64,000 bases of DNA from Psammoneis japonica (lineage: Eukaryota). Every line of letters starts with the position of its first letter. The first letter of the stretch is position 1. Position numbers and translations under genes: made by a program. The stretch lies in contig QPGO01000039.1 of assembly GCA_008632985.1 (NCBI GenBank), positions 496,001 through 560,000 on the forward strand, given 5' to 3'. Below the pieces are notes generated by a model. That model saw only the letters and a list, made by a program, of their open reading frames with translations. It made no database searches and was not told the DNA's origin. Positions 7,098-64,000 of this stretch are shown here, one piece after another.

Positions 7098-7650
7098 GAT
7101 TGGGTGACTCTAACAGTGGGTCCAGTAATTGGTAGGGCTTCACAATTACAGCAGCAATAAGTGCAGCAGCTGCTTACGTCGTCGGCAGTCGTGTGAGAGG
7201 TGATAGCAAAAAGCAAAAATGAAGGGAGAAGATGGAGAGCGATGAAATTGTGAGCAAATCCAACGCCGACCTGAAACACGTGGACGAAAGTGCAAGCTAG
7301 AAAAATCGCAAGTATCGAAAAGCTGCATTATTATTCTATTCAAGATAGCATATGAATTTATTGTGCACTCCGATCAAAATTGAAGTGAGTGTGTCCGATT
7401 ATCTCACGAACGGGTGCGCTATCTACATCATGCCGGATACGCAAGGCTCAGAGGTACCCGGTTTGCAAATTGCACCATGGCAGACTGGAAGCCGATAGAT
7501 ATCACGGCTCCTTCCGAGAGGTAGGGCCCTACCGGTAGCACGTACGTTGTCACCGCAGTCACTGAATCCGAGATGGAAGCTACCATACACTGACGACTGA
7601 CTGCAAAGGGTACGAAAAGCAAGATAGATGCCGCCCGGGGACCAGTGCTT

Positions 7651-8600: not shown

Positions 8601-8650
8601 CGTCGTTGGCGGAATCGGATCAAAATCACCACGAACATGATGATTCCCTT

Positions 8651-24543: not shown

Positions 24544-25800
24544 CCAAACCCACCAAACTTGCCAAACTCGCCAAACCTGCCAAACTCCCCAAGCTGGCCA
24601 AACTTGCCAAACTCACCAAACACGCCAAACTTGCCAAACACGCCAAACTTGCCAAACTCACCAAACTTGCCAAACTTGCCAAACCTGCCAAACTTGCCAA
24701 ACTCAGGAAACTTTCCAAACTTGTCAAACTTGGCAAACTCACCAAACTTGCCAAACTCGCCAAACTTGCCAAACCCACCAAACTTGTCAAACTTGCCAAA
24801 TTTGCCAAACTCGCCAAACCTGCCAAACTTGCCCAACTTGCCAAACTCGCCAAACTTGCCAAACCTGCCAAACTCACCAAACTTGACAAACTTGACAAAC
24901 CTGCCAAACTTGACAAACTCGCCAAACAATCCAAACTTGCCAAACCCGCCAAACTTGCCAAGCTCACCAAATTTTCCAAACCCGCCAAACTTGCCAAACT
25001 CAGGAAACTTTCCAAACTTGTTGCACTTGGCAAGCTTGCCAAACTTGTCAAACTTGTCAAACTTGGCAAACTTGCCAAACCTGCCAAACTTGCCAAACTT
25101 GCCAAGCTCGCCAAACCTGCCAAACTCCCCAAACTCACCAAACTTGCCAAGCCCGCCAAACTCACCAAACTTGCAAACCCTGCCAAACTTGTCAAACTTG
25201 CCAAACTTGGCAAACTGGCCAAAGACGAAGCCCGCCAAACTTGGCAAACTCACCAAACTTGGCAAAACCTGCAAAACCCGCCAAACTTGCTAAACTCAGC
25301 AAACTTGCCAAACTTGTCAAACTTGCAAAACTCACCAAACTTGTCAAACTTGCAAAACTCGCCAAACTTGCCAAACTTGCCAAACCTGCCAAACCTGCCA
25401 AACTCACCAAACTTGCCAAATGCGCCAAACTTGCCAAACCAGCCAAACTCACCAAACTTGCCAAACTCACCAAACCTGCCAAACCTGCCAAACTTGCCAA
25501 ACCCGCCAAATTGGCCTTGCCAAACTTGCCAAACTCACCAAACCCACCAAACCCGCCAAACACACCAAACTTGCCAAACACACCAAACTTGCCAAACTCA
25601 CCAAACTTGCCAAACCCGCCAAACTTGCCAAACTCAGCAAACTTGCCAAACTTGCCAATCTTGCCAAACTCACCAAACCCGCCAAACTTGCTAAACTTGC
25701 CAAACCCGCCAAACTTGCCAAACTTGCCAAGTGCACCAGACTCGCCAAACTCGCCAAACTTGCCAAACTTGTCAAACTCGCCAAACTCACCAAGTGCACT
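24544..25800 (+). repeat. 9-bp minisatellite (CCAAACTTG)n, ~140 units
   Basis: Directly visible tandem array. Unit variants end in TTG, TCG, TCA, CTG, CCG or CCA. Confidence 0.97.
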
Positions 25801-42500: not shown

Positions 42501-44550
42501 ATGGGAATACCGTATAAGGTAGCGTACTGCTTGGGGCTTCTGCTACTTTCAGACTTGGGGAGTGGGCAAGACTGGACACGGGTTCGAGGGACAAGACGAG
42601 GAACCATCAAAACCAAGCGATTCCCGAAGGAGATGTTGTTTTCTCTTGAAAACGGTATAGCTTTTGAGGAGGATACTTCTTACTGGGGCAGGCTTCTCAA
42701 TGAGATCAGCTTCTCAATGTCTTCGAGCCTAGAGCCAAAGAGATTGACTCCTACACTTCTCCCGTCGCCGTCTCCACGAGCCACCACCCCGACGGTACAG
42801 GACGCCACAAAACCTCCGACCCCGGTTCCGTCTTTGACCGAATTCGATCAAACCTTTGACACCCCTGGTGTATCGGCAACAACCGGCACCTTGTCGCCTA
42901 CAAGCATTAGTCGTGCAGCCCAGGTCGTCCTCTCTGTAGCACTCTTTGGCGGAGATGAATTCACTGAAGGTACCTACTATCAATCCAAGGCATTGACGTG
43001 GTTGGAACAAAATAGAGACGTTGACATTTACACCGATGAGCAAATCATTCAGAGATATTCCTTGGCTTGCGTTTTCTTTGCGACCTTTGGTGTTCCGAAT
43101 GGCTATACCACATCGGAGGTTTCAGGGTGGGACGTTTCAACCAACTGGATGACAAATGAACACGAGTGCACATGGTTTGGTATCTTTTGCAATGGAGATG
43201 GCTTTGTCTTTTCTATGGACCTTTCTTTTGTATGTACTTGCCTTAGCCTTTGCCATTGCTTTTCTTTGACATCGATCTCACTAGTCTGCTTGTCTTTCGT
43301 TAGAACTCATTGACAGGCGTCTTCCCACCGGAATCGACCTTGTTGAGCGATACTCTAGTAGACCTTCGGCTAACGGGAAACTTTCTTCATAATCATGGTG
43401 ATTTGTTCAATGCGTTCTTGGGCGAACTGACGAAACTTGAAGTACTCTTGATCGGTGATAACTTTTTCGAGAACGCAGGCATCCCGACAGAGATCGGGCG
43501 GCTGTCGAATCTAAAAGAGTTTGAAAGTTACTCCAATCAATGGACCGGTCCGCTCCGAGGAGAAATATTTGCCAACATGCCAAACCTTTTCTATATGGAC
43601 ATCTCGTTCAACAAGTATGATTCGCCAATACCAATGGAGATCGGAATGCTGCCAAGTATAGGTAAGCGTCCTGTGCGAAGATCGCATTTCTGGGCACAGA
43701 AAGCTTGAGGTTTCGCTTACCAGATACGCCCTACTCAACCTCTCTAAAACTCCTTGCTTCGATGCGATATACAGAATATCTCTACATTGAGAGTTCAAAC
43801 GTTACCGGGGATTTGTCGTACATGCTTCACCTCGACAACATTTGTGAGTCATCGTCAGTGATCCTCAAGTTCCTTTACCAGGGTATGATCATTATTGCAC
43901 CTAACCGTTTCTTTGTCCTCGTTGCAACAAAAAAGTGGAAAACTGGGTGGGCGGCAATCCGAATCTGAAAGGTTCCATCCCATCTTTCATTGGAAACATA
44001 AACACTCTCAGTAAGTTCTGTTTTGGGTTCGTCGCTTGTGAATTCGTAATTGAGGATTCTCACGATGTCTTCGCTCTTTTATCTTTCAGCAAGCTTTAAC
44101 GTTTACGGCTCAGGATTAACGGGGACACTGCCGACAGAGCTCGGATTGATTACACATATGAAGCAGTTGGTTCTAGATCGAAACGACTTTAATGGAACTG
44201 TGCCAACTGAGATAGGAATGATGAAAGAACTAGGTGAGTCGTCGGTGCTCTCAACAAGCTGTTCATACTATACCCATGACTTATCATTTTTTCACTGACT
44301 ACGCTTCATATATACAGAAACATTTCGGATAGAGGAAAACTCTCTTGATGGAGGAATGCCGCATCTGGTTTGTCATTTAGTAGACGACTACCTCTTGAGC
44401 GTTGTTTCGGCCGATTGCAACGATCCTGCCGTGTTCAATTGTTCGTGCTGTACAGAATGTTTTCCTTGCATTGGATGTGGTGGAGCCAATGGTGTACGGC
44501 ATGTAGAGAGACTTCCTCGTCAACACAAACGACTTCGGCGGGCCATCTAG
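42501..44550 (+). CDS. Leucine-rich-repeat receptor-like protein, 6 exons (introns 43230-43303, 43662-43774, 43844-43935, 44011-44089, 44234-44317)
   Basis: IIQRYSLACVFFAT, ECTWFGIFC cap, GTLPTELG and GTVPTEIG LRRs, C-terminal ADC...CSCCTEC. All five introns are GT-AG and in frame. Confidence 0.88.
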
Positions 44551-45231
44551 AGAGAGAGAGAGAGAGAGAGTAAAGAGCTCTCGCCCCATTATTCTTTGTA
44601 CAGTGACCCATCGTTTTTGTCTAGATGTAAGGTACATAAAGCACTCTCTGCGAGTGCCGTGCACTCCGTGTATTTAAGTTCTCTGTTTATCCGTAGATCT
44701 CGACATCCTTTATCGGCGAGGAAAAGAGGTTCTCCTATCGTTTCCTCCGATGGCTCTTCGCACCAGTCAACTGCTTTCTGGCTAGATCAAGCTATTATCG
44801 CGTTCCCGCGTTTCTCTCGCTTCTCTGACTAGGTACAGTACGAATGCATTCAATTCAGTTGAAGAATCAACAAAAACATAGGGGAAGCTGCGGCAGTCTA
44901 GTGCTTCAAGGAAGAGGCGCTAGTAGCTCGACATTTGTTGTAACACTTCTTTTTTTGTTACGAGTAATTCGCCAGCATTGCATGCTTCTGCCTCTCCCAC
45001 GAGATATCTCCGCAGGACAATACTGTAACCTAATCATAGTAGGGCGCTGTTGTTGCTAGAGAATAATATACTATCTGCCTCACTCTAGGGTGCAGTGAGG
45101 TCTAGAGAGAAAAGGGAAAAGCCTCCTCGAGAAAATGCACGTACGGCTATTCCTTTATCGCAATCTTTCCGCGCTCTTTCTTGTTAACTACTTTTTCGCT
45201 GCGTCACTCACCACAGCGATGCCAGATTTTC

Positions 45232-46599
45232 CTACAATTCTCTTGAACGCGTCGTTCGTGGTTTCACCACCTTTTTCTTTTTCAGAGTCGAATCCTCGTC
45301 GTCGTCGTCCACTTGGAACAAGTCTTCCCATCCACGTTCCGGAATCATGTCTTGTTTTCCATACTGATCTTCAATTGCCAGCTTGCCTTGCGTCTCTTCA
45401 TCATGATAAACATAATGGTGTTCGACACGTCGTGACACGGCCTTGGCACAGCGAAATCCAATGTTTCCCGTAGTCGTTGTTCCGTGTAGCGTTGCTCGTG
45501 ATCCACTCGTGGCAGCATGATTGTATTCGCCCGTGGGTGTATCCACGTAGGACGCTCCCCGCACAATGCGGGCTTGATGCTTTCCACCCCGTTGCCATTC
45601 CCACACGTTTCCAATCAAATCATAAAAACCCATGGAATTGGGGGGATAATGCGTCACGGGTGAGGTACCGCGCCACCCATCCTCAGCAGTGTTTTCAAAC
45701 GGAAAAGCACCCTGCCACAAATTGGCATACTTGACAGCATCTTTTTCCTCATTGCCCCACCAATAGGTGGTTCTATTGTTTGGACCATAATTCTGACTAC
45801 GCGAAGCAGCTTCGTATTCGCGTTCACCTGGAAGCCGTTTTCCGACCCAGGCACAATACTCGGCGGCATCGCGGTGTGACACATGCACCACGGGATGGTT
45901 CTCACGATACTTGTAGGATGAGTTGGGTCCCTCGGGACGTCGCCAATATGCCCCATCTACAGCCACCCAATGCTCAGCGTCCGGGTCCTTGTCGTGTGTG
46001 CCCTGCAGCTTGGAGGAAACAAAGGACTCTAGCACAAAGGACCATCCATAATGTTCCGCTTCTGTTTCATAGTGCGTACTTGCCACGAACTTTCCAAACT
46101 GCTTGTTGGTTACCAAGGTGGCATCTAAAAAGTAGGGCTCGACCGACACCACCTTTGTGGGTACTACGCCTCCGTCTAATTCATGAGTCTCGACATGACC
46201 ATAGGGTTTGGGGCCATCGCCGGGCTTTACTTTCCCATGACGGCGTTCCAATAACACCTCTTCTCGTGTTTTTTCGATTCGTTCTGGAACGTCATGATGA
46301 TGTAACAACTCATGCTCTGAAATACCCAAATGACTATCGTGTAGACTGGAACCAAAAATATACTTTAGGGAATTGTCGTGGTTATGAAAGCCCACCCGGG
46401 TACCGTTCTCGTGCAAGCGGCCCATGTAAATCATGCCTTCATAGTCTTCGTCGTTGGGATCCAAGTGTGGAGCGACATTGGCTCCGATAATGCTTTCGTC
46501 GTCATTACTGGTATAAGAAGGATCATCAGAGAGACACCTATTAACAAAAAGAGAAAAGCACGACAGGAAACACAAGAGCCGCAGCGGCAGCAACGTCAT
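45232..46599 (-). CDS. Formylglycine-generating-enzyme family protein, SUMF2/pFGE-like (no catalytic Cys)
   Basis: HPVVHVSHRDAAEYC, KRLPGEREYE, YDLIGNVWEW, RGASYVDT..GEYNH, NIGFRCA. Signal peptide and C-terminal REL. Confidence 0.85.
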   Translation of the reverse strand: MTLLPLRLLCFLSCFSLFVNRCLSDDPSYTSNDDESIIGANVAPHLDPNDEDYEGMIYMGRLHENGTRVGFHNHDNSLKYIFGSSLHDSHLGISEHELLHHHDVPERIEKTREEVLLERRHGKVKPGDGPKPYGHVETHELDGGVVPTKVVSVEPYFLDATLVTNKQFGKFVASTHYETEAEHYGWSFVLESFVSSKLQGTHDKDPDAEHWVAVDGAYWRRPEGPNSSYKYRENHPVVHVSHRDAAEYCAWVGKRLPGEREYEAASRSQNYGPNNRTTYWWGNEEKDAVKYANLWQGAFPFENTAEDGWRGTSPVTHYPPNSMGFYDLIGNVWEWQRGGKHQARIVRGASYVDTPTGEYNHAATSGSRATLHGTTTTGNIGFRCAKAVSRRVEHHYVYHDEETQGKLAIEDQYGKQDMIPERGWEDLFQVDDDDEDSTLKKKKVVKPRTTRSREL

Positions 46600-46792
46600 T
46601 GTCGATGTTTGATGATATGATTGCTACCGTATGCATGCAGCCAGCAAATTAAATGAGACAAAGCACGACGGCCTGAAACAGAATACGAAATTCAAAACAA
46701 ATGAATATGTTATTGAAACACCAAGGTATTAATTTCAATGAATGTTATTAATTCATGATGTTTTAAATAATTATGAGTTAGCCAGGGTAGGG

Positions 46793-47661
46793 CTAGTTGG
46801 TCGCGCACGTTTGGGTTCGATGTGATGAGCAACTAGCCATACCCTGCAGGAAGAGCTGTTGGTGGCGCGCGAGCAGAAGCAACAAAGCAAAGAACACGGC
46901 GTGGGTCAAAACGTAGTAAAATGACGCAACAACAAGCAACGAGAAGAAACCCAACTTGACCCATGAATACAGCGCATACATATTGTCCAACCACTTCAAT
47001 AGTATCTCGTATTCCCAACTTGTAGATGAGGGGACGGCGTTCGCGTTTCTCGCCATGGTGTTGTTGTGCGTTATCGTGTTGTTTGCGCGCGAAGAACACG
47101 GGATCTATTTATCCGATAGTGACTCTGTTTTGGTAATAGTAGATGTTTTACTATAAACAATATGAGGATATTTTGAGAAGCGCTTCGGGGCGACCCTGTT
47201 CGGACCGTTAAATAGAAATTTTTTTAAACAGATTCTAAAATGTGTTTCGGGGTGTTCCTCACTTTTTTGAATTTGGGTATGTATATTTTAAAGATCGAAG
47301 AAATATTAATGATATGTAAAATCCTCAGAGACCAACATAAATTTATGTTCCATGTAGACCGCGTAGATTGTGTACCGGCGGAAAATCCACCGCCTGTCAA
47401 CTCATCAGTAGTAATTCTACGTATATTCTACTTACACCTCACACACGCACACACGCCTACACAGTCTAATAACCGCGCACACGTGCGCGAGATAATGATT
47501 CTAGTACGAAAAAATGCCGTAGCCACAAGTAGCCACGCAAGATCCTCTGGATCTTTCTCGCTTATCGCATTACTTTTATTAGAAAATCTTTTCACAGCCA
47601 TGAGGGGTTTTGTTTTCCGCCGCTGAAGCACCTTCGCGACTCTCTCGTCAAACTCATGCAA
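46793..47661 (-). pseudogene. Small membrane-protein ORF interrupted by a Helitron
   Basis: Removing 47104-47504 joins ...ATAFFR|IPCSSRANNT...MARNAN in frame without stops (~155 aa). Confidence 0.4.
47104..47504 (+). mobile_element. Non-autonomous Helitron (401 bp)
   Basis: 5' A|TCTATTT. 16-bp palindrome CGCGCAC-AC-GTGCGCG at 47474-47489, followed 11 nt later by CTAG|T. AT-rich interior, no TSD. Confidence 0.75.
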
Positions 47662-48426
47662 TTACGCCAAATGAGACCAACAAAGACGTAGACTGCCTCG
47701 CAAAACATCGAGCAGTTGTTGCTGTTGTTGTGTGTTGGCGCCATAAATGTTCTTGAACATTTAACGTGACGTCATTCCGAAAGATGAGAACCATCATAAA
47801 GCAGGATCCCGCGACAGCGAATCACAAAACACAAAACTAACTCAATGAACAACAAAAGAACAAACCTGTTGCTTTTGGACGACGAATAACAAGAATGTGA
47901 GTCATTTTCAGTCGAGGCTGCTGTGAGCTGTGAGCTACGGGAAAAAATGTCCCATCGCTGATGCCTGATGCTGGTCCTTAGAAGCTACTTGCTTCGTCAC
48001 ATTGTACAATAGATAGAAAGCATCTCGAACGTTGTGAATGTTTAGGCACACTCGTGGTTGCGTGAACCGTGCGTCTCTTTTACCAAACTGAAGAAAGCCT
48101 TCACACAACTCGCAGAAAACAGCTCCATGTACTCGTAATTGTGCACTTTTGTTTGTTCTTGTGCGTTGTTGTTATCGTCACGTGCTTCTTCATGATGTGT
48201 TGGATAGCCACCGGAGAAGAGACGTAATGGACTGTGGCGGGGTTCGGGTTTTTATTGCCACCAAATACCCTGTCGAATATACGTGTATTGATAATGCGTG
48301 TGTTGTTTTTTTATCGACCGTGGTTGTCATAACGACACTTGTAAGACAAAATACCTTTCTAAACCTCCGTGGTATTCTCTGTGGCGCTCTTTAGAGCGAA
48401 GAGCAAGAGAGAAAGCAAAGAAACTC

Positions 48427-50496
48427 ATGATGACGGGCAACTGGGAGAATTTCCGTGTACGTGTCATTGTAGGAAGTTTAATGGTGCTCCCCACGATCTC
48501 GGGGTTTGAACCAAATTGTGGGAAGCCCAATACAGATCCCTGCGAGATTGCTACTTACAATGATCTCAAGGGTGTTGAGGCCAACGGACTGGACAGAAAC
48601 TATGTGATGATCAATGATATTCAAGCCACAGACGACAATTTCAAACCTATTGGCAATGAGTATGAACCTCTCTGGTACGTTGATTCGTACCATGACTCCT
48701 CTTATTATGAGGAATACGAGGTCGAGTATACTACCTTCACTGGATCATTTGATGGTGGTGGGCATGCGATTCGTGGGTTGTCCATCTTTCAAGAGGAAGA
48801 TGGCAGCATGGGCAAGGGTTTGTTTGGTGGTCTTAGTAATGCCGATGTCCGCAATCTCATCCTAGTTGACACCAAAGTTGGTGCTTCTGACACCTCTGCC
48901 AGATTTGCCGGATCCCTTGCTGGAAGTGTTTATGGTGGCACGATCCATAATGTCACCTCAAGAAATCCACAAGTCAATGGAGATGCTGTTGCTGGTGGGC
49001 TTGTTGGAGATGTATATCAAAATTGTAAAATCTCCTGCTGCCGGGTTCTCGATGGGAAAGTAAACGGGAATCAAGCTGGTGGTCTTGCGGGGTGGATTGA
49101 CGATGTTACCATCGAGGAATGCAGCGTGCAAAACATCTCTGCGATAGAACATGAGTTTGGACCGGACAGTTGCCAAGGAGTCAGTCATCAACAATTGCTT
49201 TGTAGCTGGTGATGTTGCTGTTTTTGGTAGTTTGGAGGTGGGTGGCCTTGTCGGAGCAGCATCGAGTACGAACATATCAAACAGCTATTTTCTAGGTGAT
49301 GTTCATGCGAAAGCAAGTCAAGCGGCCGGTGGTCTCGTTGGCAATTCTTTCAGATCGTCTATTAAGAGCAGCTTTGCCACAGGTAAGGCCACAATAGAGA
49401 AGAGCTTGTATGACGATGATATTTTCATAGGTGGATTTATTGGCCATGACAGCTCCGATGACTACGAGTTGCGACTACTAGAGGGTAACTACTGCGTGAT
49501 GGACCCTGCAGTTGGCGACGAGTATGAGGCAGCCGACACCGAAGTGAAAGTCGTGGAAAGCAAGGAATACTTTCGTGATCCCACTAATCCGCCACACTCC
49601 GGCTGGGACAGCAACATTTGGGCCCAGCTACACAACAGTGCATACCCCTATCCAACCCTTCAGTGCCAATCTTCTGGTCAGAGTAACACTCCCCCAGTTG
49701 CCGTTGATTTCCCTTTGTCAGGAAAGATCAAACTGGACTCGTGCAAAAAACTTGATACCACGATCACCTTTCTGAGTCCGGAGCAAGATCAAACTACTAA
49801 CGTCAAGACTTGGGGAGTCCCCGGTGGAATGACTGCGACAAACAAACCTGGAAATGCAGCGACTGTTCGTCTCGAAATGACACCGACGGCGAATGCGCGA
49901 TACAAACTGTTCTTCAAAGCCCAAGACAGCAAGGGAGCTGTTACCAAGAAGAAGCTACTTGTCATAGTGTCTGGCTGCAAGACTGCAAAGGCACCAAGAA
50001 TGCGCTGCAAGGAACGAGATAAAAAAGCCATGTCGTCTTCAAAGTGCTATGTTTGGACTACGATTGACGACGGGTCCAAATCTTTTGACTCCAAGCCTGT
50101 TGACTTGACGCAAGTCCCTCCTCCGCCCTACGGCGTCGGTGTTACGGATGTAACACTCACAGCTACGGACAGTGAAGGCCGCACAAATACCTGTACGAGG
50201 ACTGTGACGGTTCGTCAACCTCGGCGTGGCGTCTGTCCTGTAAACAAGCCACCAGTTGTGCGCTGCAAAAATAGGGATAAAAGAGCCCGCCCTTCCCTCA
50301 TTGCAAGGTATGGACGACGATTGACTTCGATTCGTATGATCCCAACGGCGACACGTTGACGCACGTCCTGGACCCTCCGCCTCCCTATGGCATTGGAAAT
50401 AGAACAGTGACACTCACAGTCACAGATAGCAAAGGGGCATCCTCATCGTGCACAAGATGTGTCAACGTTCGACCTCCTAGCGATGGCACTTGCTAA
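48427..50496 (+). pseudogene. Secreted GLUG-motif protein with C-terminal HYR/Ig-like repeats; two frameshifts (~49160, ~50295)
   Basis: NYVMINDI, FTGSFDGGGHAIRGL, GLFG, repeated AGGLVG. Two PPPPYG..VTLT.TDS.G repeats, the second in a different frame. Confidence 0.75.
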
Positions 50497-51289
50497 ATCA
50501 CGCCCAAAAACCTGTGGAAAGCAACGGAGTCAGCGACTTTTAGGAAAGAAGAAGACGCACTCATATTTGGTTCTTCAGTTTTACCTGTGGACATTTATTT
50601 TCGCACGGTTTTTGCACTTCTTGGATGTAGTCTTGCGTGAGTTTATAGTTCCCATGGTGAACCAAGGAGGGTGTAGGACCGTTGCAACCTTGCTTTAATG
50701 ACATTAGATAAAAACCGCGTGACCTGATAGCTTTCCACATTCTTTTGCCAAAGATGTAACATGTCCTTACACGAGCTGTCTTGAAGCTCAAGAAGCATGG
50801 CAGACGCTCGATTTTCTAATGGACAAAGTTGCGCACGACGTGTACAAACAGAATATACCGGCCTCCAACCAACTTGTGAAAGAACAAGAAAAGTTGGCTG
50901 GGTCCCTCCACCGGCTCAAACAAGCCATGGAATCACTCGAAAATGCAACAGGCCTGTCCTGAATTTGTCGATGATGTGGGCAAGATCATGAGTGCCTGTG
51001 CAACAAAATTGGTTGACAACTTTGTCCAGGCATGCACAGACAGGGTTTTTATGATGTTCTGCCAAGTCACCTGAGTGACACTGGGTTGAAATCTCTTTCC
51101 AGGAAGGAAGCCACAATGTGGAAAAGCAGTGTCACTGAGTCTGAGAGAGCCATCTTGGCCATTGTGAAGCATCTGCGTGGAGTCATGCTCTGCGGCAGAC
51201 AATGCAACTGGACCAACTCTCTGTTGTCAATTTGGGAAAGAAGAGAGGACCCAGCACAAGAACAAAATGAATGTGCATGACAAACTTTT

Positions 51290-51965
51290 GGCTTTTGACA
51301 GGGTCACTGTCTGCAACCCCAGCAGGTGGCCAGCATGTCTGCTGCCATGATCTCATGGTTGATGCAGCATTGCCTCCACCTGTTGTTGATGCATGTGTTG
51401 TTTCTGTCAAAGCTTCTTCATTGGGTCAGCCCAAAAGTTGACCACAAGGTTTTGGTGGCCTCCCCACTGTTTTTGTGCCATGTGCTGCACAGCTCAAGTT
51501 CTGCATTTTTGCACTCCAAAAAGTGAGACAAGTGGATCTGATTGTTCTTTGTTGGACTCGGGTTGGATCAGTTGTGTCTCAAGAACTGCATGACACCCAC
51601 TGTGCCAGGGATCTGTTCTGTTGATGTGGGCAGCCAATGACTTTGCAACAGTCTGTGCAGCACCTCTGCAGGGTGACTGACAGCATTTCTCAGTTGTGCA
51701 TTGAGTGTGTGCTGGAAAATTCTTTTTCCTTTTTTGATGGTGCCAGTCTGGAGCACCTCTCCAAGGAAGAGCTCTCTGCAACCTTCTGGCTCAAAGGCTG
51801 GCAGGTTTTATGGGCATGGTTGTCAAGTTCTTGACTGGCTGGTTGCTTTTTGCACAAGTTGCAGCAGTGGTTGTGTGGCTGCTCTTCATTTGACTTTGAT
51901 TTCTCAACTTTGCAGCTGCCTGTGAGAGCAGCACCAATCAACAAGAATGCAAAGTGGAGGTGACA
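51290..51965 (+). repeat. Dispersed repeat, copy 1 of 3 (others ~58100-58772 and partial ~60985-61290)
   Basis: Shared ccaaaagttgaccacaaggtttt, gccagtctggagca and gcaccaatcaacaagaatg. Confidence 0.8.
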
Positions 51966-52100
51966 TGCAAAAGAGCCATGATGTACACAGCACCATGCCA
52001 AGCCAAATTGTCAGGGGCCAGACCATTCCAAATCCTGCAATGAAGTGAGGAGAGAAGCAACAACATGAGATGTGAAGTGACTGCACTCATCAACTCACCA

Positions 52101-52647
52101 CAGTTGCGGCTCATCGTGGACAGTGCAGGGGCAAGAGGTGTTGGCTCCACCACAGAACAATGCACCACAGCCAGTGTCAACTGAGTGATGCAACAAAGGA
52201 GCAGTGGATCAGCTGTCATGTGCAGGACTCTCACCACATCTGTGATGGAAGGGAACAAAACATGGCATCACAAGCAAGAAATGAAAGCAAAAGTGATGCA
52301 GTGACAAAATGAGTGACAGGGACAAGATTGTGTTGGAGAGCTGCTGCAAGAATGCATTGTTCAGACAGCACAAGTTTCTAAATGACAAGGCCCTCAACAA
52401 TCACAAATGGAAGGGTTGCAAGGACAGTGCTGTCAGAGCTCAGCATGCCCCGAGAAAAGGGAGCATGATTTTGGGACACATCAAAGGATGAGGTGCAAAG
52501 GCAAACAACGAGAAAGAAGAACAAAGTCAGTGATGAACTGAACAAGAGTTTCTTCCTAAGCAGCACAACTGATGGAGTGTGCTGAGTGTGCCGCGGACAA
52601 GGAACTGGAAAAAAGCTGACACACGTGCATGCACAGGGTGCACAGAT
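52101..52647 (+). repeat. Direct repeat X flanking the Penelope-like element (second copy 56754-57268)
   Basis: Near-identical blocks running from cagttgcggctcat to cacagat on both sides of the element. Confidence 0.9.
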
Positions 52648-52910
52648 GAGTTTTTTTGGGGTTGCACAAAACCCTTAAACCATTTTTTACACATGGTCAG
52701 CTCTTTTTAGATGTGTCTTCAAGCATCAACCCAATCCACCATTTGAAGCACCAAAGCCTGCCATTTTCTCCTCCTGAGTTTTTTGGGCCAAGACATCAAT
52801 GTGCTTTTGCACGCATCGGCATTTGTCTTCAATGGTCGCGTCCAAGCTGCAATGGCAATGACCATTAAAAATGGCTGATCTCTTGACTTTTCAGCTCACA
52901 AGAAAAACAT

Positions 52911-52971
52911 GCCAACCACACTGATGAAGGTGAAAGCAAAAGCTCACATTGTCAAGCTTTGCAGGTTTGGC
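52911..52971 (+). ncRNA. Degenerate type I hammerhead ribozyme in the 5' pLTR
   Basis: CTGATGA core, GAAA-like segment, stem III GCTC/AAGC and outer GCCAA/TTGGC. Stem I is restored when TpA is put back. Confidence 0.6.
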
Positions 52972-55900
52972 AAGACTTTGACTGAGTCTTGTCAGTGCCA
53001 AAGGTGTTTGCACACTTGAAAACCTCAACAGCAGTGTGCACCCAAACAATGATGACAAGCACCAGTGCCTCCAATCAAATCACACCAATGAGGGCCAATG
53101 AAGCTGCAGTGTCATGCACCATGACTTTCGTTGAACCCGATCCAACAACGACATGTTGACAAACTCAAACCATGCCAGGAGCTGATTGAGAAGCAGCCAG
53201 CAGGACTCAGGGGTGCACTCGAGTCCCTCACGACTCGAATGATTTTGCAATCTGCTCAGGTGCAATGGAGGGAGAAAAGAATGCAAGCCTTTGCAGGTGA
53301 ACAAGATCCTCCTTTTGTCCCACATGGCTCAAGGCTCAATGTGGAACTCAAGCACAGCAACAAGCTTCAAGATGATGCAGACACAAAAAAGCTTGTGAGC
53401 AAATTCAAAGACATTGTGGCCAATTTCCAAGAAAAAGGTGTGAAGCTGATGCACAAAATGGCAGAACGTCAACTTGAATTTGCAAAAACAGAAAGAATTT
53501 CTGCACTTGTCACTGCATGCATCGATCTCTTTGAACACCACATGTTCTGTTGCATTGCACATCAAAAAGGAGCATCAAAGCATTCACACAGGCACTTGGG
53601 AGCACTCTGTCTGCTGAAACATGCAAAGAACAAAATTGCAGACACCTTCTGTGTGACCCATCTCAGAGTCAAGCAATGTGTTGTCCCAGCTGAGATCATT
53701 TTGCAGATGCAATCAGATGTGGAGTTAACTGCTCCACCCACCAAAGACACCAACGAAACAGAGTCAAACCCACGCCACTTCACTGACAGCAAAACCAAGA
53801 TCTGTGACACATGGTCACAAGGCTTCAATGCAAGAACACTTTTGGAGAAGTCACCACACGACCACAAAATAAAATCAACCACAAAAACAAAATTGCAAGA
53901 GCCAACATGCAAGTCACCACCAGGTGGAACTCATGCAACAAGAAAGCAGCAGCTGAAGCTGCCGCTGCCACCCTGGAAAATGAGCCATCAGCGCACCGGG
54001 CGCAGCCAAACAAGCTGTCAAAGCTCTTCAAAAACACAGCAGCAGTTAAAAAGGAAGCAAAAAATCTTCGCGGGCAACCAGAAAGCCCTGCCGGCCAAAA
54101 ATGCCACTGCTGCAAAAACAGGAAATGGACCACCACAGAAAAAACAAAAAAACATCAGGAGGCAAGCCTCGCACCAGAAAACAACAGAAAAAACAAGGAA
54201 ATGGAAGAGGCAATCACAGCGCACAGTGCAAAGGTGGGGAAAAAGACTCTGGACATGCACCTGACTTCTGAACTGCTGATTGAGACCACCAACCATCAAG
54301 CCAACAGCTTTTGCAAAAGGATCTGTGGGTTCATGCCAAACCCACCAAACAAAACCCCATGTGGCAAAATGCCATTGATGTGCTTGCTTGGCAATGCTGC
54401 TGCAGTGCAATGCTTCAACTGCCCAATCAATCTGGCTTTCCACAACCTTTGCACAAACCTCCAACCCCCTCCAGGCCTCGTTGCTCTTCTTGGACTTGGC
54501 CACAAGTTTTGCATCAAATGGCCAAGACCACCATCGCACAACAAAAATGGAGCTGAATGACTTTGTTGATCAACTGGCCTTGCAGCCTCTGCCATTTCTC
54601 ATCAATTCCATGGATGCCCCATCAGAAGCCACAACCACATCCCAGGCCTGTGCATCAAGTCAATGTGGGAGCCACCAAAAACAAAAGAAGGCAACTTGGA
54701 ACTGCGTGTGCATGATGGACTTTGCCAACTGTGCTGAACAACTTTGCTGCCAAGCCACAGCAAAACAGCCTTGGCACAACTTGTTGCAACAACAGCGCCA
54801 GCTTTTTTGCTCTCTCAAAGAGGATGGCCAATTCATTGTTTGCTTGAGTGACAAAAATCTTGGACCCATCATCATCAAATGGGCCACGTGCGTCACTCGA
54901 GTCCTCCAAGACCATCTGCTCAACCAGAACAACTGCCAACGATTTTCACCTGCAAAAAAACCAACCTCCTGCAGGATGCAAAGCAACATCTTGTGGATGT
55001 GTGCAATGAAGCCAAGCCTCTCTTAAGCTCCACCAAGCAAAGTTGCTTCAAGCACAGCTTTGACCTGCACCATTGCATCCCGCAATTTTACATCACAATC
55101 AAGGTCCAAAAAATCCCTTGGAAACAAGACCAATTGTCAGTTGTGTGGGCAGTTTTAACAAAATCTTCTCAAACTGGTTGGATGAAAAGATGAAGGAGCT
55201 CTTCACCCTTTCCCACTGATGCATCTGTGATTCCCACCAAGTTCTCATGGATCTGCCAGCACTGGGAACCTTGCCTCCAGGTGCAAAGCTCTTCACCATC
55301 AATGCCATCAGCGTGCATTTGAACATTGACATGAGTCATGCCCTGGAAGTCTTCCAAGACTGGTTCAACACATGCCCAGACAAAATGCCAGCAGGCTTCT
55401 CAATGATTTTTCCCTCTCCACCTCAACTGTCATCATGACACGTGACATTGTCCAGTTTGATGATGCATGCTGGCACCAAACCTGTGGAGCTGCAATGGGC
55501 ACCAGCACAGCATGCATGTGTGCAATGCTGCACAAAGCCCTGCACGAGCGCCAAGTGCTCAAGACATGCTTTGCCACCAACCTTCAGCACCATGGCTGCT
55601 TTGTTGACAACATCCTTGGTGCATGAACAGGAGACAATGAAATGACATGGACAGAGTTCAAAAATGAAATGAACAACTCTGCCCCCCTTGTGCGGGAAAC
55701 TTCCCCACTCTCAACCTCCAACACACATTTCTGGATCTTGAAATCCACATCGGAGCTGACAACAGAATCATCACTCACACACACCAAAAGCCAATGAATC
55801 TCTTTTTGCACATCCCATCTGCCTTGGCACATGCACTGGGAGCACTGAAGAGCATTGTGCGCAGCAACCTCTGGCATTTCTGGACACAAAATTCCAATGT

Positions 55901-56639
55901 GGCAGACTGCATCACTGTTGCACAGAATTTTGTGAACCGTCCAGTCAAAAGAGGACACTGTCAAGCCACCCTGTGTGAGATCTTTGTGCAAGCCGTGCAG
56001 CACCTTGACAACCCCTCTCAACACCACCACTCCAATGCTGCTGCAAACCCAAGCTCTGCATTGTTTTTTTACAGTGAATTTCACCCACAAGGGAAACCCC
56101 ATGTCTCCATCTGACGAGTCCATGACAAAACACTGCTGCAGGGAGTGCAACACACTGGGTTTGACCACTTTGTGCTTGCCTGCTCACAACCAAAAAATTT
56201 GAGAGATGCTTCAATGCAAACTCAAATGCAGGAACCAGAAGGGAAGCATGCATCTAAATGCACAGAGCACTCAGATCCAGAGCTCTTAGTTGGTGACTCC
56301 ATCGCAACGACACACCTCCAGCAAAAAACTCAAATGGGCCACCTTCCTTGCTTTCAGCACTTCGGCTTGCACCCATTTGAGTTTTTTGGGGGTTGCACAA
56401 AACCCCAAAACCACTTTTTACATGCAGCCAGCTCTTTTTAGATGTGTTTTTGAGTGTCAACCCAATCCACCATTGGAAGCACCAAAGCCCACCATTTTCT
56501 CCTCCAGAGTTTTTGGGCCAAGACATCAATGCGTGTGCTTTGTGTGCACTGGCATTTTTCAATGGTCACATCCAAGCTGCAATGGCAACGACCATTAAAA
56601 ACAGCCAATCTCAACATTTTTGGCTCACAAGAAAAACAT

Positions 56640-56693
56640 GCCAACCACACTGATGAAGCAAAAGCTCACATTGTTGAGCTTTGCAGCTTTGGC
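56640..56693 (+). ncRNA. Degenerate hammerhead ribozyme in the 3' pLTR (stem II deleted)
   Basis: CTGATGA followed by the perfect hairpin AAAGCTC-acattgtt-GAGCTTT, flanked by GCCAA/TTGGC. Confidence 0.5.
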
Positions 56694-59600
56694 AAGACTT
56701 TGTCAGAGTCTTGTCAGTGCCAAGGGCATTTGCACACTCAAAAACCTTGGCAGCAGTTGCGGCTCATTGTGGACAGTGCAGGGGCAATGGGTGTTGGCTC
56801 CACCATGTGTCAACTGTGATGCAACAAAGGAGCAGTGGATCAGCTGTCATGTGTGGGATTCTCACCACATCTGTGATGGGGAAGAACAAGATGACATCAC
56901 AAGCAAGAAATGAAAGCAAAAGTGATGCAGTGACAAAATGAATGACAGGGACAAGATTGTGTTGGAGAGCTGCTGCAAGAATGCAGTGTTCAGACAGCAC
57001 AAGTTTCTAAATGACAAGGCCCTCAACAATCACACAATGGAAGGGTTGGAAGGACCATGCTGCCAGAGCTCAGCATGCCCCAAGAAAAGGGAGCATGATT
57101 TTGGGGCACATCAAAGGATGAGGTGCAAAGGCAAACAACAAGAAAGAAGAACAGCGTCAGTGATGAGCTGAACAAAAGTTTTTCCTGAGCAGCACAAACA
57201 AATGGAGTGTGCCATGAACAGGGAACTGGAAAAGAACTGACACACATGCATGCACAGGGCACACAGATCATGAAAAGAAGAAACCACAAGCGCACAAAAC
57301 AATGCCAAGATGCCATCTCTGGAAGACATGCCAGAGGGGCGGAACAACATGATGGCCCAAAGCTGTTTCACCATCATGCAAATCCTGCCACTCATGGTCA
57401 GAAAGACGATGTGGAAGCATTGGCTCAAGAGTTGAGACATTGCTTGAACAAGTTGGCATCTGCAAGTGACGAGGCATTTGGTCTGCCAGTGTTGGAGAAC
57501 AGCTGGAACAAGTGGGCATGCATGCACGGCAGCAAAACAAAGGAAGAGTTGAAGGAATTAAAAAGGAAAGGAGGAGGAATAGACCATGGAAACATTGATG
57601 GAGCACTCACAAAACTTGCATCAGAAATGTTCATGCAGTGACACAAAAAGAAGCCAAGTCATTGACCTGCATTTGTCAATGCAGCACACTGGCATGGATG
57701 CCCACATCAAATGTGGTGGTGGAACCCAAGCTGCAATGAACCCAAAACCTGTGTGGAAAACAAAGGAGGGGCTTGCATTGCTCCATTTGGCCCAACCTGC
57801 AAATTGCCAACCCCTCAGATGCAGGCCACACAAAGTGCCGCAGCTGTGATGATTTCCTTGTTTTCACTGTCGCAAGGTGGAAATTTGACACTCTGCTGTG
57901 GGCTCATTTTCATCATTTGCGCTGGTTGTTGTGCTGGGCATTTGCTTCTGTGCTTCTTTGTCAGAATGTGAGGTGTGGTGTGGTCTAGTCTCAGACAATG
58001 ATGGTCTCTTAGACATGTGGTGCCATGCTGCATGGTGGGAAAGCCACCTGCACACATCTCACCTGGAGCTGGAACAAGCCCAGCAGTCAGAGAAACAAGT
58101 GGGCAACTGCAACTTTGTTGAGGCCTGACAGGTGGCTGGCGCTGTTTGCAGCCATCTCAGTCCATGCAGGAGTGACTCCACTTGTTGGTGCATGAAGCTT
58201 CTTCATTGAGCCAGTCCAAAAGTTGACCACAAGGTTTTGCCCCCCCCCCCCCCCCCCCACTGTTTTTACACAGCGTGCTCTGCGGCACAAGTTCTTCTGC
58301 AGTTTTTGCACCAAAAGGTGAGACAAGCAGTGGATCTGAGATTTGCTGTTGGATTTGCTTGGATTGGGCCAGCTGGATTTCAACTGCGCAACACCCACTG
58401 TGCCAGGGACCTGTTTTGATGACAATCAACAGCCAATGACTTTGCACAACAGCAGTCTGTGCAGCACCTGGGGTGACTGACAGCACTTCTCAGCCATGCA
58501 CCATTGTGCCAGAAAATTCTTTTTCCTGCTTTGGTGGTGCCAGTCTGGAGCACCTCTTCAAGGAAGAGCTCCGCAACCTGCTGACTGAAAGTCTGCAAAG
58601 GAGGCAACCAGGTTGACAGGCATGGTTGTCAAGCTCTTGACTGGCTGGTTTCTTTTTGTGCACAAGTTGCAGCAGTGGTGAGCAGCTGTTCTTTTTTCAA
58701 CTTTGATTTCTCAACTTAGCAGCTGCCTGCAAAAGCAGCACCAATCAACAAGAATGTGAAATGGAGGTGACAAGTGTTGAGAAGTGAGCAACAAAAAACT
58801 CTGCACCTCTTGCAAAGTCAATGTGCAAGGTGGCCAAGCCAGATCTGCACAATGTGTCACTGGCCACACAGGTTGGTTCAGATGCAGCTAATTCAGTGTT
58901 TTTGTTTGTGTGTTGGTTGCTTTTGACTGGGGGAAACAATGGGGTGAAGCAAGTGGCCCAACACAACAAGGGTGCAACAACTTTGGGCCACTTGAAAACT
59001 TGAAAATTGTGGCAATCACCCTCAAGCCAGCCTGCCACACTGGTGTAAAAAAAGGGTGGTGCCTGCACATCAGAGGGGGGTTCCATGCAGGTTTTTGCAC
59101 CAATCAGTTGGGTTTCCCTTCCTCAAATGCAGGGTGACCCACATTTGACACAATGAATCTGCATTTTTTCCACGCAACCCTGCTTGATTTCCACAGTGCC
59201 TGCAGGAATCACAATCCTGCAGGATGGCAAAAACTTCAGTTGAATCTTCCTGGATTTAATTTGTGTTCTTCTGCAGAGGAAACAGCAGACAATTTTTTCT
59301 GAGTTCTTCAAGTGGACATCCCCCCACATGTTCTTGGCACAGGATGTGCCGCACAAACCACAAGCTGGTGTCCATGGGTGATGCTTTCTCTTTCTTTTTT
59401 GTTTGTGCCATTTGCTGCCTCTGTTTTTCCCATGGCAATGCCGTTGTTCAATGACAGCAAAAATTTCAACCTGCAGCTCCAACAACGTCAATGTCCCACT
59501 CAACACGCAAGTTTGTTTGTTCCCAAAATTTTGTTTTGTTCAGTTGGAAAGGGAAACGGAACTTTCTTGTTTGCAATCTTTCCCTTTTGGTGCCATTGTT

Positions 59601-62600
59601 GTTTCATTTTGTGGATGTGGAGCAACACTTCTCCACACACCCATTTGTTGTTTTCAATGCATTGTGGGTTGCTGTTTTTGTCTCCTTCTGGCAGCTCAAA
59701 GGCACACAGGGGATGCCGCCGCCACTCTCATCTGTTGAAAAAGCAGCATCAGAATGCAGTCAAGAGCAGAAAAGGGAAGTCATCATGTTGAGATCTGTCT
59801 TTGTGTTTTTGTGATTCTGCAGCGCCACTTCACGGGCGGGGCTGGTGCATTGGAGATGTCTGTCATGCTGCCAGGGTCCATCCTGTGGCCCCAGTGCTTG
59901 CAAGGGGTGCAGCCAGTTGTCCTGTGCTTTTTGACGGCTTGCCTGACATTGCTGTCAGGGTTCATCATCCCGTGCCCTCCAATTCCATGGGGGGTGCAGT
60001 GATGTCAGTGGATGCACCCTTCAACAAACATGTTGGGGTGCACCCATGCTCCTCCTCACTTTGGGGGTGCAGCCACTGGATCTCACTTTTTGGGGTTCTT
60101 GCAAGCTGGAAAGCATGCTGTCAGGGTTCATCCCATGACTCCCACCTTTGATGGGGGTGCACCACAGCTCTTCAAGGATTTGATTTTGTTTGCATGGATG
60201 ACAGTCTTGATGCATCATCCCACACTTTTGGAGATGGCATCAACAATGTCAGTGGCTTTGTTTCTGCAGACCACTTTGCCAGCTCTCCCATGGTCCATCC
60301 ATCCCACACTCCCCCTCTTTCTTGTGGATGGAACCTCTCTGTGAACCTCACCCAAGAACTTTCCCCTGCAAGAATCCCACTGAGTCCCTGCATGTCTTCA
60401 TCTTCCACCGCTGAGGCCAGGAGAAAAATGGGCGGCAATCAGGTCAGAGACAACATGGGTGGTGGATGAAACAACGACAACATTGCACAACAGTTGTTCT
60501 GAAATTGACCAAATCTCACGCAGTTGTCAGTGCACAAAAGTGGACACTGGTGCACCAGGGAAAGCCATTGTTTTCACTGGCGCAGTGCAGTCTTTTTGGC
60601 AGAGACCACCACAATGAATTCATGGTGTGATGGTGGGGCAGATGGCTTGAAAGAACAGAGTGTGCACATGCACAATGGATGTGTGACACCAACAGACAAT
60701 CAGGCAAAGTCACAAAATCTTTGGACTCTTTGGACCAATGAGAACTCACATCAGAAATTTGAACAAAAAGGGCACAATGCATGAGTGCATTGGAGTGGGC
60801 ACCAGTTGGCCCGGCACGTTCGCAGACAATCTCAGAACTGGCACTTCATTTGCAACTCAGATCTGGTCAGTTGGTTTTCAACTGGTGCATGATGCCCAGC
60901 TGTGGCTGCTGGAGACTTGCCATGTTGAAAATGTGGGCAGCTGGATGATGGCCTTGCTGTCATCCATGCACTGCCTCTGCTCCAGGGCCCTGCTCAGAAG
61001 GGGTGACTGACAGTGCTCCTTGACCACCCACCAAGGCAAAAAAATGTTTTTCCCATTTTGTTGCCAGTCTGGAGCATTTTTTTAATGAGCTCTGCACCCT
61101 GCCGGCCAAAATTGTGAGCTGGAGGGCACCAAGTTCAGCTGGTGCAACTGCTGAGCTCTTGACTGGTTGTTTCATTTTTGCACAAGTTGCCACAGTCCTG
61201 TGAGTTTTTTTTTTTTCAACTTCTTTCAATGCTTTGCAGCTGTGAAAGCAGTGCCAACAAACAAAAATGTGAAGTGGAGGCAAGCAGAGGCAAGAACATG
61301 TGGTGTCAAGAAGGAAGTGGCAAAACATTGTGTGCTTCTTGCAGAAATTGACTTGTTGCACTCAAGCAATTTTTCTGTCTTGTTGCACGACACAATGTCT
61401 GTGCAGAAGGCAGCCAAACCAGATCTGGTGCACACTGACATGTCATGCAGGGCTCATGTGTGCATCAGCATGGTGTGGTCTGACCCGGGCTCTGCACCCA
61501 CCTCCCTGCCAGGGACACAAGTGTCCAGCTGCTCCTCAAGCCCCACACAAGCATTTGCAGGTGCGCAGCCCAGCATGCACAATCAGGCAGCAGGTGACAA
61601 CAAAGAAGTGGCGCTTGTTGCACGTGTGCTGAGCGCTGCGCAAGCAGGAGGAAGGGAGAGCATGTGCATCAGAAGATGCTGCATCTTGCATGCAAACATG
61701 AAGTGTTGGCCAGTTGCACGGGGACTGCTGCTGGGCCAAATGTTGCTCCAAGAGCTTGTGAGCAAAGTGCAGCCAAACAAGTGTGTGTGGCTGCTGCCAC
61801 TCAATTTGCGCTGCTTGAGACACCCCATCTGACTGGATGATTGCGTCCCATCCCCACTTCTTGCTTTGCATCAACTTTGTACAAAAATGCCACAGGTTTG
61901 CCAACGCTGCTGAGAAGCTCCTCTCTTTTTCTTCTCAAACATGTGAAAAGTTTTTCAACATGTGGCTGTTTTACTTTCCACCACCTTGGCTTCTTCCTCG
62001 ACTCCATCATCAACCTCATGCAATTTGCATGCCAAATGAGATCCACAAAAAGTGCAATCAACAAAAGAGAGTCGAGTGGCAGCTTTCTCGCAAAACAACG
62101 AGCAGTTGCTGTCGTTCTGTTGTTGGCGCCCTTGCCACAAATGTTCTTGAACATTTAACGTGATGTCATGTTCGAAACAATGAAGACATCAAAAAACAAT
62201 GAGAACCGAGGACAGAGAGATCAGTCTCACCGCACGCAGACCGCAGCGAATCATCGCAAGACACAATGAAAAACAAAAGAACTGAACTGTTGCTGTGAAC
62301 GAAAAAACAAGAATGTGAGTCATTGCTCAGTCGAGGCTGCTGTGATCCACGGAAAAAAAGTCCCATTGCTGATGCCAGTCGTCACTTTTAGAAGGTTGTG
62401 AATGTTTGCGCAGGGCCCTGAGATTGTGGTTGCGTGAACGACGCGTCTCTTTGCCAAAATAAAGAGTGCCTTCACAAAACTCGCTGAAAGCAGCTCAATG
62501 CAATTGGGCCCTTTTGTGTGTTCTTTTTCGTTGTTGTCATCGTCACATGCTCCTTTGTGCGTTCGATCCACCGGAGAGGTGACAATGTGATGGACGGCAG

Positions 62601-62788
62601 GGGTTCGGGTTCTTTTTGCCCCCAAACACCCTGTCAAATGACTGCATTGATTTGGCGTTTTGTTGTTCTTTTGTCGATCGCAGTTGTCATGACGACACTC
62701 ACAAGACAAAGCGCCTTTCTAAACTTCCGTTGCATTCTGTGTGGGGTGCCCTTTAAAGCGAGGAGCAAGAGAGAAAGCAAAAGAACTC

Positions 62789-63912
62789 ATGGTGACGGGC
62801 AACAGGGAGAATTTCCGTGTGCGCACCATCACAGGGAGCTCAATGGTGCTCCCCACGATCTCGGGTTTTTTGCCAAATTGTGGAAAGCCTGGTGCAGATG
62901 CCTGCAAGATTGCTGCTTACAATGATCTCAAGGGTGTTGAGGCCAATGGACTGGACAGAAACCATGTGATGGTCAACGACATTCAAGCCGCTGACGACAA
63001 TTTCAAGCCCACAGGCAGCAGTGGTGACACCTGCAGTTGTGAGGAATGTGACATGCCGTTCACTGGATCGTTTGATGGTGGCGGACATGCCATTCGCGGT
63101 TTGTCCACATTTCTGGGGGAAGATCACGATTGTGACAGCACCGGCTCGGGTTTGTTTGGTGGTGTCGCTGGTGACGCCGACATCCGCAATCTCATCCTCA
63201 ATGACACCAAAGTTGAACATTGTGGCCACTGTCCAAACCATGCCGGATCACTTGCTGGATGTGTGGATGGTGGCACGATCCATAATGTCGCTGCAAGAAA
63301 TTCACAAGTCGAAGGGGATGTCTGTGCTGGTGGGCTTGTTGGATGGGCAGATGGGGGCAATTTCTCCTGCTGCCAGGTTCTTGGTGGGAAAGCATGTGGG
63401 GATGCAGCTGGTGGTCTTGCGGGATGGATTAAAAATGTTGCCATCAAAGAATGCAGTGTGCAAAACATCTCTCTGAAAGATGGGTGTGAACCGTGGTGTC
63501 ACAGGTCTTTTGGCGGTTTGGTTGGCCGAGCCGACTTCTCAGTCATCAACAATTGCTTTGTGGCTGGTGATGTCACTGTTTTGAGCAATTTGCCTGTGGG
63601 TGGCCTTGTTGGGGAAGCATGGGCAACGAACATGTCAAAGAGCCATTTTCCAGGTGATGTGAAAGGAGGTCACACCGCTGGTGGTCTCGTTGGCATGACT
63701 TACAAATCGTCGATTAAGAGCAGCTTTGCCACAGGTGAGGCCACAACAGAGAAGAGCTTGTGTGACGATGATGTTTTCACAGGTGGATTTGTTGGTCGTG
63801 ACAGCTCCGATGACTGCGAGTTGCGACTAGAGGGCAACCACTGCGTGATGGACCCTGCAGTTGGGGGCGAGCATGAGGCAGCCGACACCGAAGTAAAGTC
63901 GTGGAAAGCAAG
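62789..63912 (+). pseudogene. TpA-hypermutated, truncated paralog of the GLUG gene at 48427
   Basis: Colinear with ~48427-49565. The upstream ~0.8 kb (61950-62790 vs 47600-48430) is also homologous. Confidence 0.92.
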
Positions 63913-64000
63913 TGCAGTGTGCCTCGCTGCTGGACAACACGGCGAGACCGTGTGTGAGCCTCTTGCACGTGGCAACGCAGCATTGTTAACACGTGCCTGG

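Follow-up and report, generated by a model that had tools for sequence, protein, structure and literature searches.

Decayed copies of a probable type I hammerhead ribozyme in the pseudo-LTRs of an endonuclease-less Penelope-like element of the diatom Psammoneis japonica

Type I hammerhead variants are known in the pseudo-LTRs (pLTRs) of endonuclease (EN)-deficient Penelope-like elements (PLEs) of fungi and protists, including Thalassiosira oceanica (PMC4209133, Cervera and De la Pena 2014), and among the EN-deficient Coprina/Athena elements, Coprina has been reported from Phaeodactylum (PMC8557442, PMC13159263). TpA hypermutation, comprising TpA→TpG and TpA→CpA changes, has been described in Bigelowiella natans, and the accessible part of that study proposes an adenosine deaminase as the cause without showing one (Mettrop et al., bioRxiv 10.64898/2026.01.13.699255). 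As for the duplications left by insertion, Dualen LINEs of Chlamydomonas have long TSDs with a median of 900 bp, which are ascribed to two endonucleases (PMC9977147, where a 126-bp TSD of R9 is also cited), and Penelope TSDs are reported as 8-10 bp (PMC3846280). Published work already covers hammerheads in the pLTRs of Penelope elements as well as TpA hypermutation; the long flanking duplications described below are less ordinary. Our literature search, which largely covered papers outside subscription journals, returned nothing on TpA loss in diatoms other than the study of Bigelowiella itself, which concerns a different host, no description of the present hammerhead variant beyond PMC4209133, and no report of long duplications at EN-less PLEs.

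The window analyzed here is a 64,000-nucleotide stretch of a P. japonica contig. With a probability of about 0.88, two motifs in it represent a genuine type I hammerhead that has decayed, carried in the pLTRs of an EN-less, two-ORF PLE; CpG loss would have been the main contributor to the inactivation of these motifs and TA mutation a minor one. The features concerned are as follows.

51001..64000, no strand assigned: TA-depleted repeat domain holding the element (TA obs/exp 0.00-0.13; CpG 0.05-0.26 up to 62000)
52101..52647, forward strand: left copy (~550 bp) of a flanking duplication, meeting the element at its 5' end
52647..53035, forward strand: 5' pseudo-LTR, 83.5% identical to the 3' copy
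52658..52681, forward strand: decayed telomere-like hairpin at the start of the pLTR, TTAGGGTT ... AACCCTAA in less-mutated subfamily-A copies
52911..52971, forward strand: predicted type I hammerhead of the 5' pLTR, with its core starting at 52921
53146..54119, forward strand: frameshifted ORF1 remnant, matched in tblastn by the ORF1s of L046 (E 3e-36) and L054 (E 2e-35)
54297..56285, forward strand: remnant of a telomerase-like RT ORF in four pieces and three frames, with stops and no GIY-YIG
56378..56757, forward strand: 3' pseudo-LTR, a direct repeat of the 5' copy
56640..56693, forward strand: predicted hammerhead of the 3' pLTR, with a predicted cut after 56681
56754..57268, forward strand: right-hand counterpart of the left copy, to which it is 86.7% identical, abutting the 3' end of the element

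The predicted hammerheads resemble those of PMC4209133 in being of type I, in lying in both pLTRs, and in having a long helix III, an extra nucleotide separating positions 9 and 10.1 and a G10.1-C11.1 pair. They differ from them, as far as the accessible text goes, in the 2-bp stem II with a GAAA loop, the 10-bp doubly bulged stem I and the CUU triplet, and the protist variant of Fig. 3C in that paper may already be the present one. Like Coprina/Athena (PMC8557442, PMC13159263), the element has a TERT-like RT with DKN, no GIY-YIG, an overlapping upstream ORF1 in a different frame, pLTRs with hammerheads and a short telomere-like stretch, here in subfamily A; unlike what is described for these elements, the present copies are interstitial and flanked by direct duplications of 0.18-4.0 kb. 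As in Bigelowiella (bioRxiv 10.64898/2026.01.13.699255), where RT domains are enriched among the TpA-depleted sequences, the mutation affects both strands and is confined to domains, whereas the diatom host, the retroelement target, the near-complete depletion of old copies and the CpG loss alongside set the present case apart. A variable long direct duplication on either side of a non-LTR insertion is shared with Dualen (PMC9977147), to which two endonucleases are attributed; in contrast, no endonuclease was detected in the present element.

The window element is a dead, endonuclease-less, two-ORF Penelope-like element of a diatom. Its pLTRs are direct repeats that contain the predicted hammerheads, the arrangement of EN-deficient PLEs, and the pLTR has at least 33 matches in the genome (G000). 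The two-ORF layout is seen in the relative L046, in which a 510-aa ORF1 is followed by a 769-aa frame that overlaps it in the -1 frame, and the layout of the metagenome contig L043 (Ga0209990_10017465) is alike. ORF1 matched no Pfam family and gave no usable match in the ESM Atlas. Pfam and PDB sequence searches with the RT were also blank, and it was recognized by fold search only: an AlphaFold model of the L046 RT (pLDDT 91.7) gave TERTs as the top nine Foldseek matches. The RT has 821 homologous relatives, and D183-K184-N185 (DKN) is invariant in the 56 that were aligned. No Pfam match to GIY-YIG was obtained in either ORF, nor was any recognized domain beyond PF28514/PF26215 found in the 120 listed near-length and four longer RT homologues. 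In the window RT, none of the 23 aligned Tyr residues is kept, and 14 of them are now His or Cys. For the RRP4 gene in the window, the named homologues are proteins of diatoms. All 30 bins of 52000-57400 are covered by short-read contigs of one public run, which may be the source sample; because every bin is covered, this region is not peculiar to the assembly.

The telomere-like hairpin is seen in subfamily A only. TTAGGG arrays exist in the genome, and none of five contig ends beside element copies carries one; the copies lie interstitially, inside Mb contigs. Attachment of the element to telomeres was rejected on the five contig ends. An interstitial telomere-like array at L046:8324-8361 (reverse strand) has every TA changed to TG or CA, whereas C108 and C297 have long TTAGGG arrays in which TA is kept. 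A second copy of the element, 97.8% identical and with the same flanks, lies at C174:23548-30900 (L048) and is an allele or a segmental duplicate; 50 of its 95 differences from the window element are of the CpG, TA or CA<>TG type.

Both pLTRs carry GCCAACCACA-CTGATGA...GCTC...(A/G)AGC-TT-TGCAG..TTGGC, as a sequence-only reading of the window had noticed, and its proposal of a type I hammerhead in Penelope-like pLTRs is supported by the core, the triplet and the covarying stems in an alignment of 30 copies. The aligned copies fall into three subfamilies and were taken from 39 hits, with nine left out (a metagenome copy, four copies identical or near-identical to C_L031, and four partial or rearranged ones). 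In the family fold, stem I has 10 bp and carries two bulged single nucleotides in its 3' strand, A9 is followed by an extra A, stem II has 2 bp and a GAAA loop, stem III has 4-5 bp, and the triplet is C-U-U. In the 5' copy, its parts are predicted at the following positions of the forward strand.

52911-52920: 5' strand of stem I
52921-52927: core, C3 to A9
52928: extra A
52929: inserted G
52930-52931 with 52936-52937: stem II (2 bp), closed by the GAAA loop
52938: position 12, A in place of the family G
52939-52941: A13 to A15.1
52942-52945 with 52954-52957: stem III
52958: U16.1
52959: U17, with the predicted cut just after it
52960-52971: 3' strand of stem I, with bulges at 52963 and 52968

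The 3' copy has lost one 6-nt repeat unit (stem II), has A at position 12 (56660), and shows TA→CA changes at 56667 and 56684 and a G→C change at 56687. The sequence-only reading had passed over the G12→A change in both copies, the 6-nt stem II deletion of the 3' copy and the 1-nt G insertion of the 5' copy.

Both window copies and 25 of the 30 aligned copies retain the full core C3-U4-G5-A6-N7-G8-A9. G12-A13-A14-A15.1 is present at the family level, with G12 in 16/30 aligned copies and in 12 exact genomic matches to the undecayed core plus stem II (reversed control, 0); intact copies, for which the earlier reading had suggested a search, are thus found in the genome. The G12 general base is missing from both window copies. 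At the U16.1-H17 cleavage site, CTT stands in 30/30 copies, the A15.1-U16.1 pair is A-U in 29/29 distinct rows, and the three helices, with open ends in stem I, show compensatory change, as in type I. A hammerhead descriptor fitted to the family geometry had its sole match in the window at 52921 and none in 100 Markov-resampled windows, a specificity figure that is generous because the descriptor was written after the motif had been seen. A covariance model of the family identified no third copy in the window, and its two top matches belong to its own training set. Rfam returned no hammerhead family at E<=5 for 44000-64000 of the window or at E<=10 for five loci, undecayed copies included. By every sequence test save an Rfam match, the family classifies as a type I hammerhead and the window copies as decayed members.

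In the bulged register of stem I, 92.0% of 486 cells are paired with 32 double changes and a covariation of 0.217 (0/500 shuffles; slid controls at most 36.4% paired), values to be read with the structure having been derived from the same sequences and with the double changes reflecting few independent events among three subfamilies. When folding is left unconstrained, the bulged stem I comes out for the less-decayed copies L006, L037, L015 and L014. At stem I columns 11-12, subfamily A reads CA in 7 copies, TG in 3 and AA in 1, and the ancestor had CA, CG or TA. In L043, the hammerhead sits upstream of homologous ORF1 and RT; its core, stem II and CUU triplet are identical, and its stems I and III differ yet are complementary, with stem I in an unbulged 5-bp register (CTCCA/TGGAG). 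L043 is a TA-rich metagenomic relative that keeps the two-ORF layout and serves as an unmutated outgroup. Cleavage may be slow with a stem II of 2 bp and a U17 site. Loop III is complementary to the core over 4-5 bp in all subfamilies and in L043 and dominates the minimum-energy folds; this pairing is possibly a self-inhibitory switch, or chance.

Relative to the least-mutated subfamily state, the 5' copy has eight differences: five from CpG decay (52931, 52938, 52950, 52954 and 52968), two at TA (52945 and 52962) and the inserted G at 52929. The change at 52938 is the loss by CpG decay of G12, the catalytic general base. G12A is present in 13/30 aligned copies and is recurrent because the C11.1-G12 step is a CpG, and this substitution slows the full-length hammerhead about a million-fold (PMC2553840). 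The TA change at 52962 creates an A.C mismatch in stem I, and that at 52945 turns a U.G wobble position into C, which would form C-G if its partner had not decayed. Because the conserved catalytic core holds no TA, TA changes cannot reach it. Both window ribozymes are most likely dead. The main cause would be the G12A change arising from CpG decay, joined in the 3' copy by a slippage deletion of stem II; we infer from the sequence that CpG decay and slippage inactivated them, with TA mutation a minor contributor. That the TA process destroys RNA structure, as had been suggested, is weakly borne out: the A.C mismatch speaks for it, whereas five of the eight changes are CpG-derived, the core is free of TA, and the stem I TA is kept in 9/10 pLTR copies of five young elements. 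Six nt of stem II have been lost identically in subfamily A (the event at window 56650-56663 shared with C174; L003) and in subfamily B (L014), and the repeat unit is slippage-prone, since the same loss arose in both.

The direction of the TA mutation can be followed over whole pLTRs and the RT. At the 23 TA sites of the TA-rich pLTR L006, ten sister pLTRs read CA in 78 cells, TG in 55, TA in 22 and other states in 75, and each window copy is changed at 13/16 alignable TA sites. Five young elements (93-95% identical) have 151 TA sites, of which L046 keeps 129 and its sisters 38-91, and their CpG loss amounts to 3-21 of 281, with a background of 1.7-2.8%; in the RT of the young elements, 263/456 TA cells are mutated and 193 kept. 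TpA hypermutation is confined to domains, and genes are spared, as seen in the TA obs/exp profile of the window; genic DNA has TA obs/exp of ~0.6 and CpG of ~1.0, in contrast to the domain of the element. The idea that active masters purged synonymous TA was rejected, as the synonymous rate is not higher (0.28 vs 0.47 non-synonymous in the L044 RT), and because there is no synonymous excess, the TA changes are post-insertion. The codon-junction TA ratio of L046 (23/33) resembles that of host genes. The earlier reading had drawn the direction of the TA mutation from restored pairing in the ribozyme. The direction, TA→CA/TG, holds, but the sole stem I pair that records it is 52918 with 52962; the ribozyme adds little, and on our sequence comparisons the direction is firmly supported by the whole pLTRs and the RT.

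Across the pLTRs of L044, L045, L046, L056 and L057, TA is kept in 49/60 cells at six sites in a stretch that begins 139 nt upstream of stem I and takes in its 3' strand, and in 16/70 cells at seven sites just downstream of the ribozyme (site-level Mann-Whitney p=0.002). This TA-spared zone may be a protected promoter, an effect of sequence context or something else. In 51001-62000, 27/34 surviving TA are in CTAA/TTAG, TTAA or GTAA/TTAC contexts, compared with 201/810 in genic DNA, and TA beside AA/TT is therefore relatively resistant.

Direct duplications abut both element ends in 11 of 27 regions; one further region (C241) is a partial candidate, and 15 have none, being mostly short old fragments with limited flanks. 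The lengths are 550 (window), 546 (C174), 1625, 1954, 3998, 2064, 180, 576, 1420, 236 and 777 bp. C174 shares the flanks of the window through the same event and was not counted apart from it, which gives ten independent insertions (window, L044, L045, L046+L067+L068, L047, L051, L053, L056, L057+L071 and L060). Among blocks of at least 3.7 kb, 9/12 have duplications. Flank matches of 75-77 bp at C391 and C179 (inner block) were dropped, as they lie inside pLTRs. The ends of the duplications fall 0-30 nt from the detected element ends, and all four window junctions are bridged by Logan short-read contigs of the public run that may be the source sample. The identity of the duplication copies is close to that of the pLTRs at the window (86.7 vs 83.5%), C2 (95.9 vs 95.5%) and C412 (98.1 vs 97.8%), though not everywhere, as at C214 (99.7 vs 93.6%), where the flank is already TA- and CpG-poor. 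At C2 (L044:1198-2820 vs 7220-8844), one of the two host copies holds 16 TA and the other 54, 42 of their 62 differences are TA<>CA/TG, and the less-mutated duplicate with 54 TA holds an open AAA-like frame.

Other accounts of the fold have to be weighed. The sequence-only reading had held that the RNA folds only once its mutations are undone; on that account, the ancestral stem I was a perfect CTACA/TGTAG helix, stem III paired GCTCG with CGAGC, and the TA mutator destroyed this fold. The observed 5' copy already forms 15/17 family pairs, and half of the restored-pairing argument is wrong because neither that stem I register nor the GCTCG stem III is supported. Reversion of TGCAG to TGTAG was correct, the 3' TA site at 52962 being real (TA 1, CA 8 and TG 2 in 11 subfamily-A copies), and so was the CpG restoration to GC-GAAA-GC-GAAA, which CpG-retaining copies read exactly. 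The matching 5' reversion from CCACA is contradicted by the copies: CA stands there in 11/11 subfamily-A copies, including L006, TA in 0/30, and the pair at columns 9-59 is unformed in 25/29 distinct rows. The aligned copies lack the CTACA pairing on which the reading had staked itself (CTACA in 0/30). Assessed on natural copies rather than on a folded reconstructed RNA, its register has 80.9% of cells paired and a covariation of 0.128 (26/500 shuffles). The stem III site reads TA in 2, CA in 20, TG in 8 and CG in 0 of 30 copies, so the ancestral state was TA, and GCTCG occurs in 0/30. The unbulged CTCCA/TGGAG of L043 means that a very remote ancestor may have paired the A in question, but with a catalytic loss derived from CpG and a stem I TA that most young pLTRs retain, we regard the account as very improbable; in the doubly bulged register, the ancestral 5' strand is best reconstructed as CCACA. 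The RNA might instead have been inactive even when undecayed, trapped by pairing of loop III with the core, serving as an RT structural signal, or dependent on a protein or on dimer formation for cleavage. The minimum-energy folds predicted for undecayed copies do differ from the hammerhead fold, with loop III paired to the core at energies lower by 1.8 (L037) and 5.8 kcal/mol (L006), and animal minimal PLE hammerheads cleave poorly in vitro (PMC4209133). However, nearest-neighbour energies do not model the junction, fungal PLE hammerheads with a long stem III cleave as monomers (PMC4209133), and conservation of the core, G10.1-C11.1 and U16.1-U17 extends over the subfamilies and L043, with covarying stems. 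Inactivity seems unlikely, and we retain the reading of a genuine hammerhead.

The mutational and insertional parts of the picture have their own alternatives. That the duplications are assembly artefacts, with filled and empty alleles in tandem, or later segmental duplications is suggested by the near identity of the copies at C214 (99.7%) and C386 (99.0%), by the 15/27 regions that have no duplication, and by the fact that no single contig or long read spans an element. Against it stand the agreement between duplication and pLTR identity at the window, C2 and C412, the 42 TA<>CA/TG changes between the C2 copies, the position of the duplication ends close to the element ends and the bridged junctions of the window, and we judge it distinctly unlikely, although misassembly is harder to dismiss for the youngest cases. 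Even less can be said for a reversal of direction, in which fungal-type RIP (C→T at CpA/TpG) made the TA-rich copies and CA/TG is ancestral, a notion with no argument found in its favour other than that any pairwise comparison is formally symmetric. The 27 CA sites of L006 are TA in 0/199 alignable cells and its TG sites in 2/115, and in TA-rich L046 the frames are open and carry the Tyr/Ile residues found in the consensus of the homologues. Furthermore, individual sites show CA in one set of copies and TG in another (56/101 multiply hit TA sites of the young elements and 15/23 of L006), and because CA and TG are mixed at the same sites, the RIP direction is refuted, which makes it scarcely credible.

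With TA→CA/TG as the direction and duplication at insertion, a scheme for the element can be proposed. In an active element, the two ribozymes would cut the precursor after U17 to release a 3,722-nt unit RNA. ORF1 and the RT, the two of which overlap in the -1 frame, would copy this RNA into DNA, starting at a 3' end already present. With priming on a break or fork end that exists beforehand and rejoining upstream, the intervening host DNA would be copied twice, so that insertion leaves a long direct duplication of the target. The inserted copy would then be silenced and mutated by CpG decay together with TpA→CpA/TpG hypermutation. More broadly, we lean toward an interstitially mobile, EN-less Penelope lineage of diatoms that bears hammerheads and that, at insertion, routinely copies 0.2-4 kb of host DNA anew on either side by break or fork priming and consigns one copy to the TpA mutator. 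Its minimal ribozyme with a 2-bp stem II lies in a largely spared zone of ~200 bp, which would provide a natural footprint of mutator targeting.

The family represents a natural hammerhead variant of compact form, which Rfam does not recognize and of which intact and decayed copies both exist in nature. One RNA separates two processes, as CpG decay removes the catalytic base and TpA hypermutation mostly spares the ribozyme region, and this sparing is a constraint on how the TA mutator finds its targets. Kilobase target duplications with no detectable endonuclease are relevant to the insertion of EN-less Penelope elements at sites other than telomeres, and provide diatoms with a route to gene duplication; if the scheme above is true, insertion duplicates host sequence and hands one of the copies to the TpA mutator.

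Other repeats were observed in the window. A separate dispersed repeat surrounds the element in three copies with 70-74% identity (51323-51965, 58129-58772 and 61000-61280). The GLUG-motif gene region at 47697-49564 has a second, TA-depleted copy, 73.6% identical, at 62087-63912 in the mutated domain. A long tandem array with a 9-bp unit and inverted arms occupies 24434-25740, inside a TA-depleted block.
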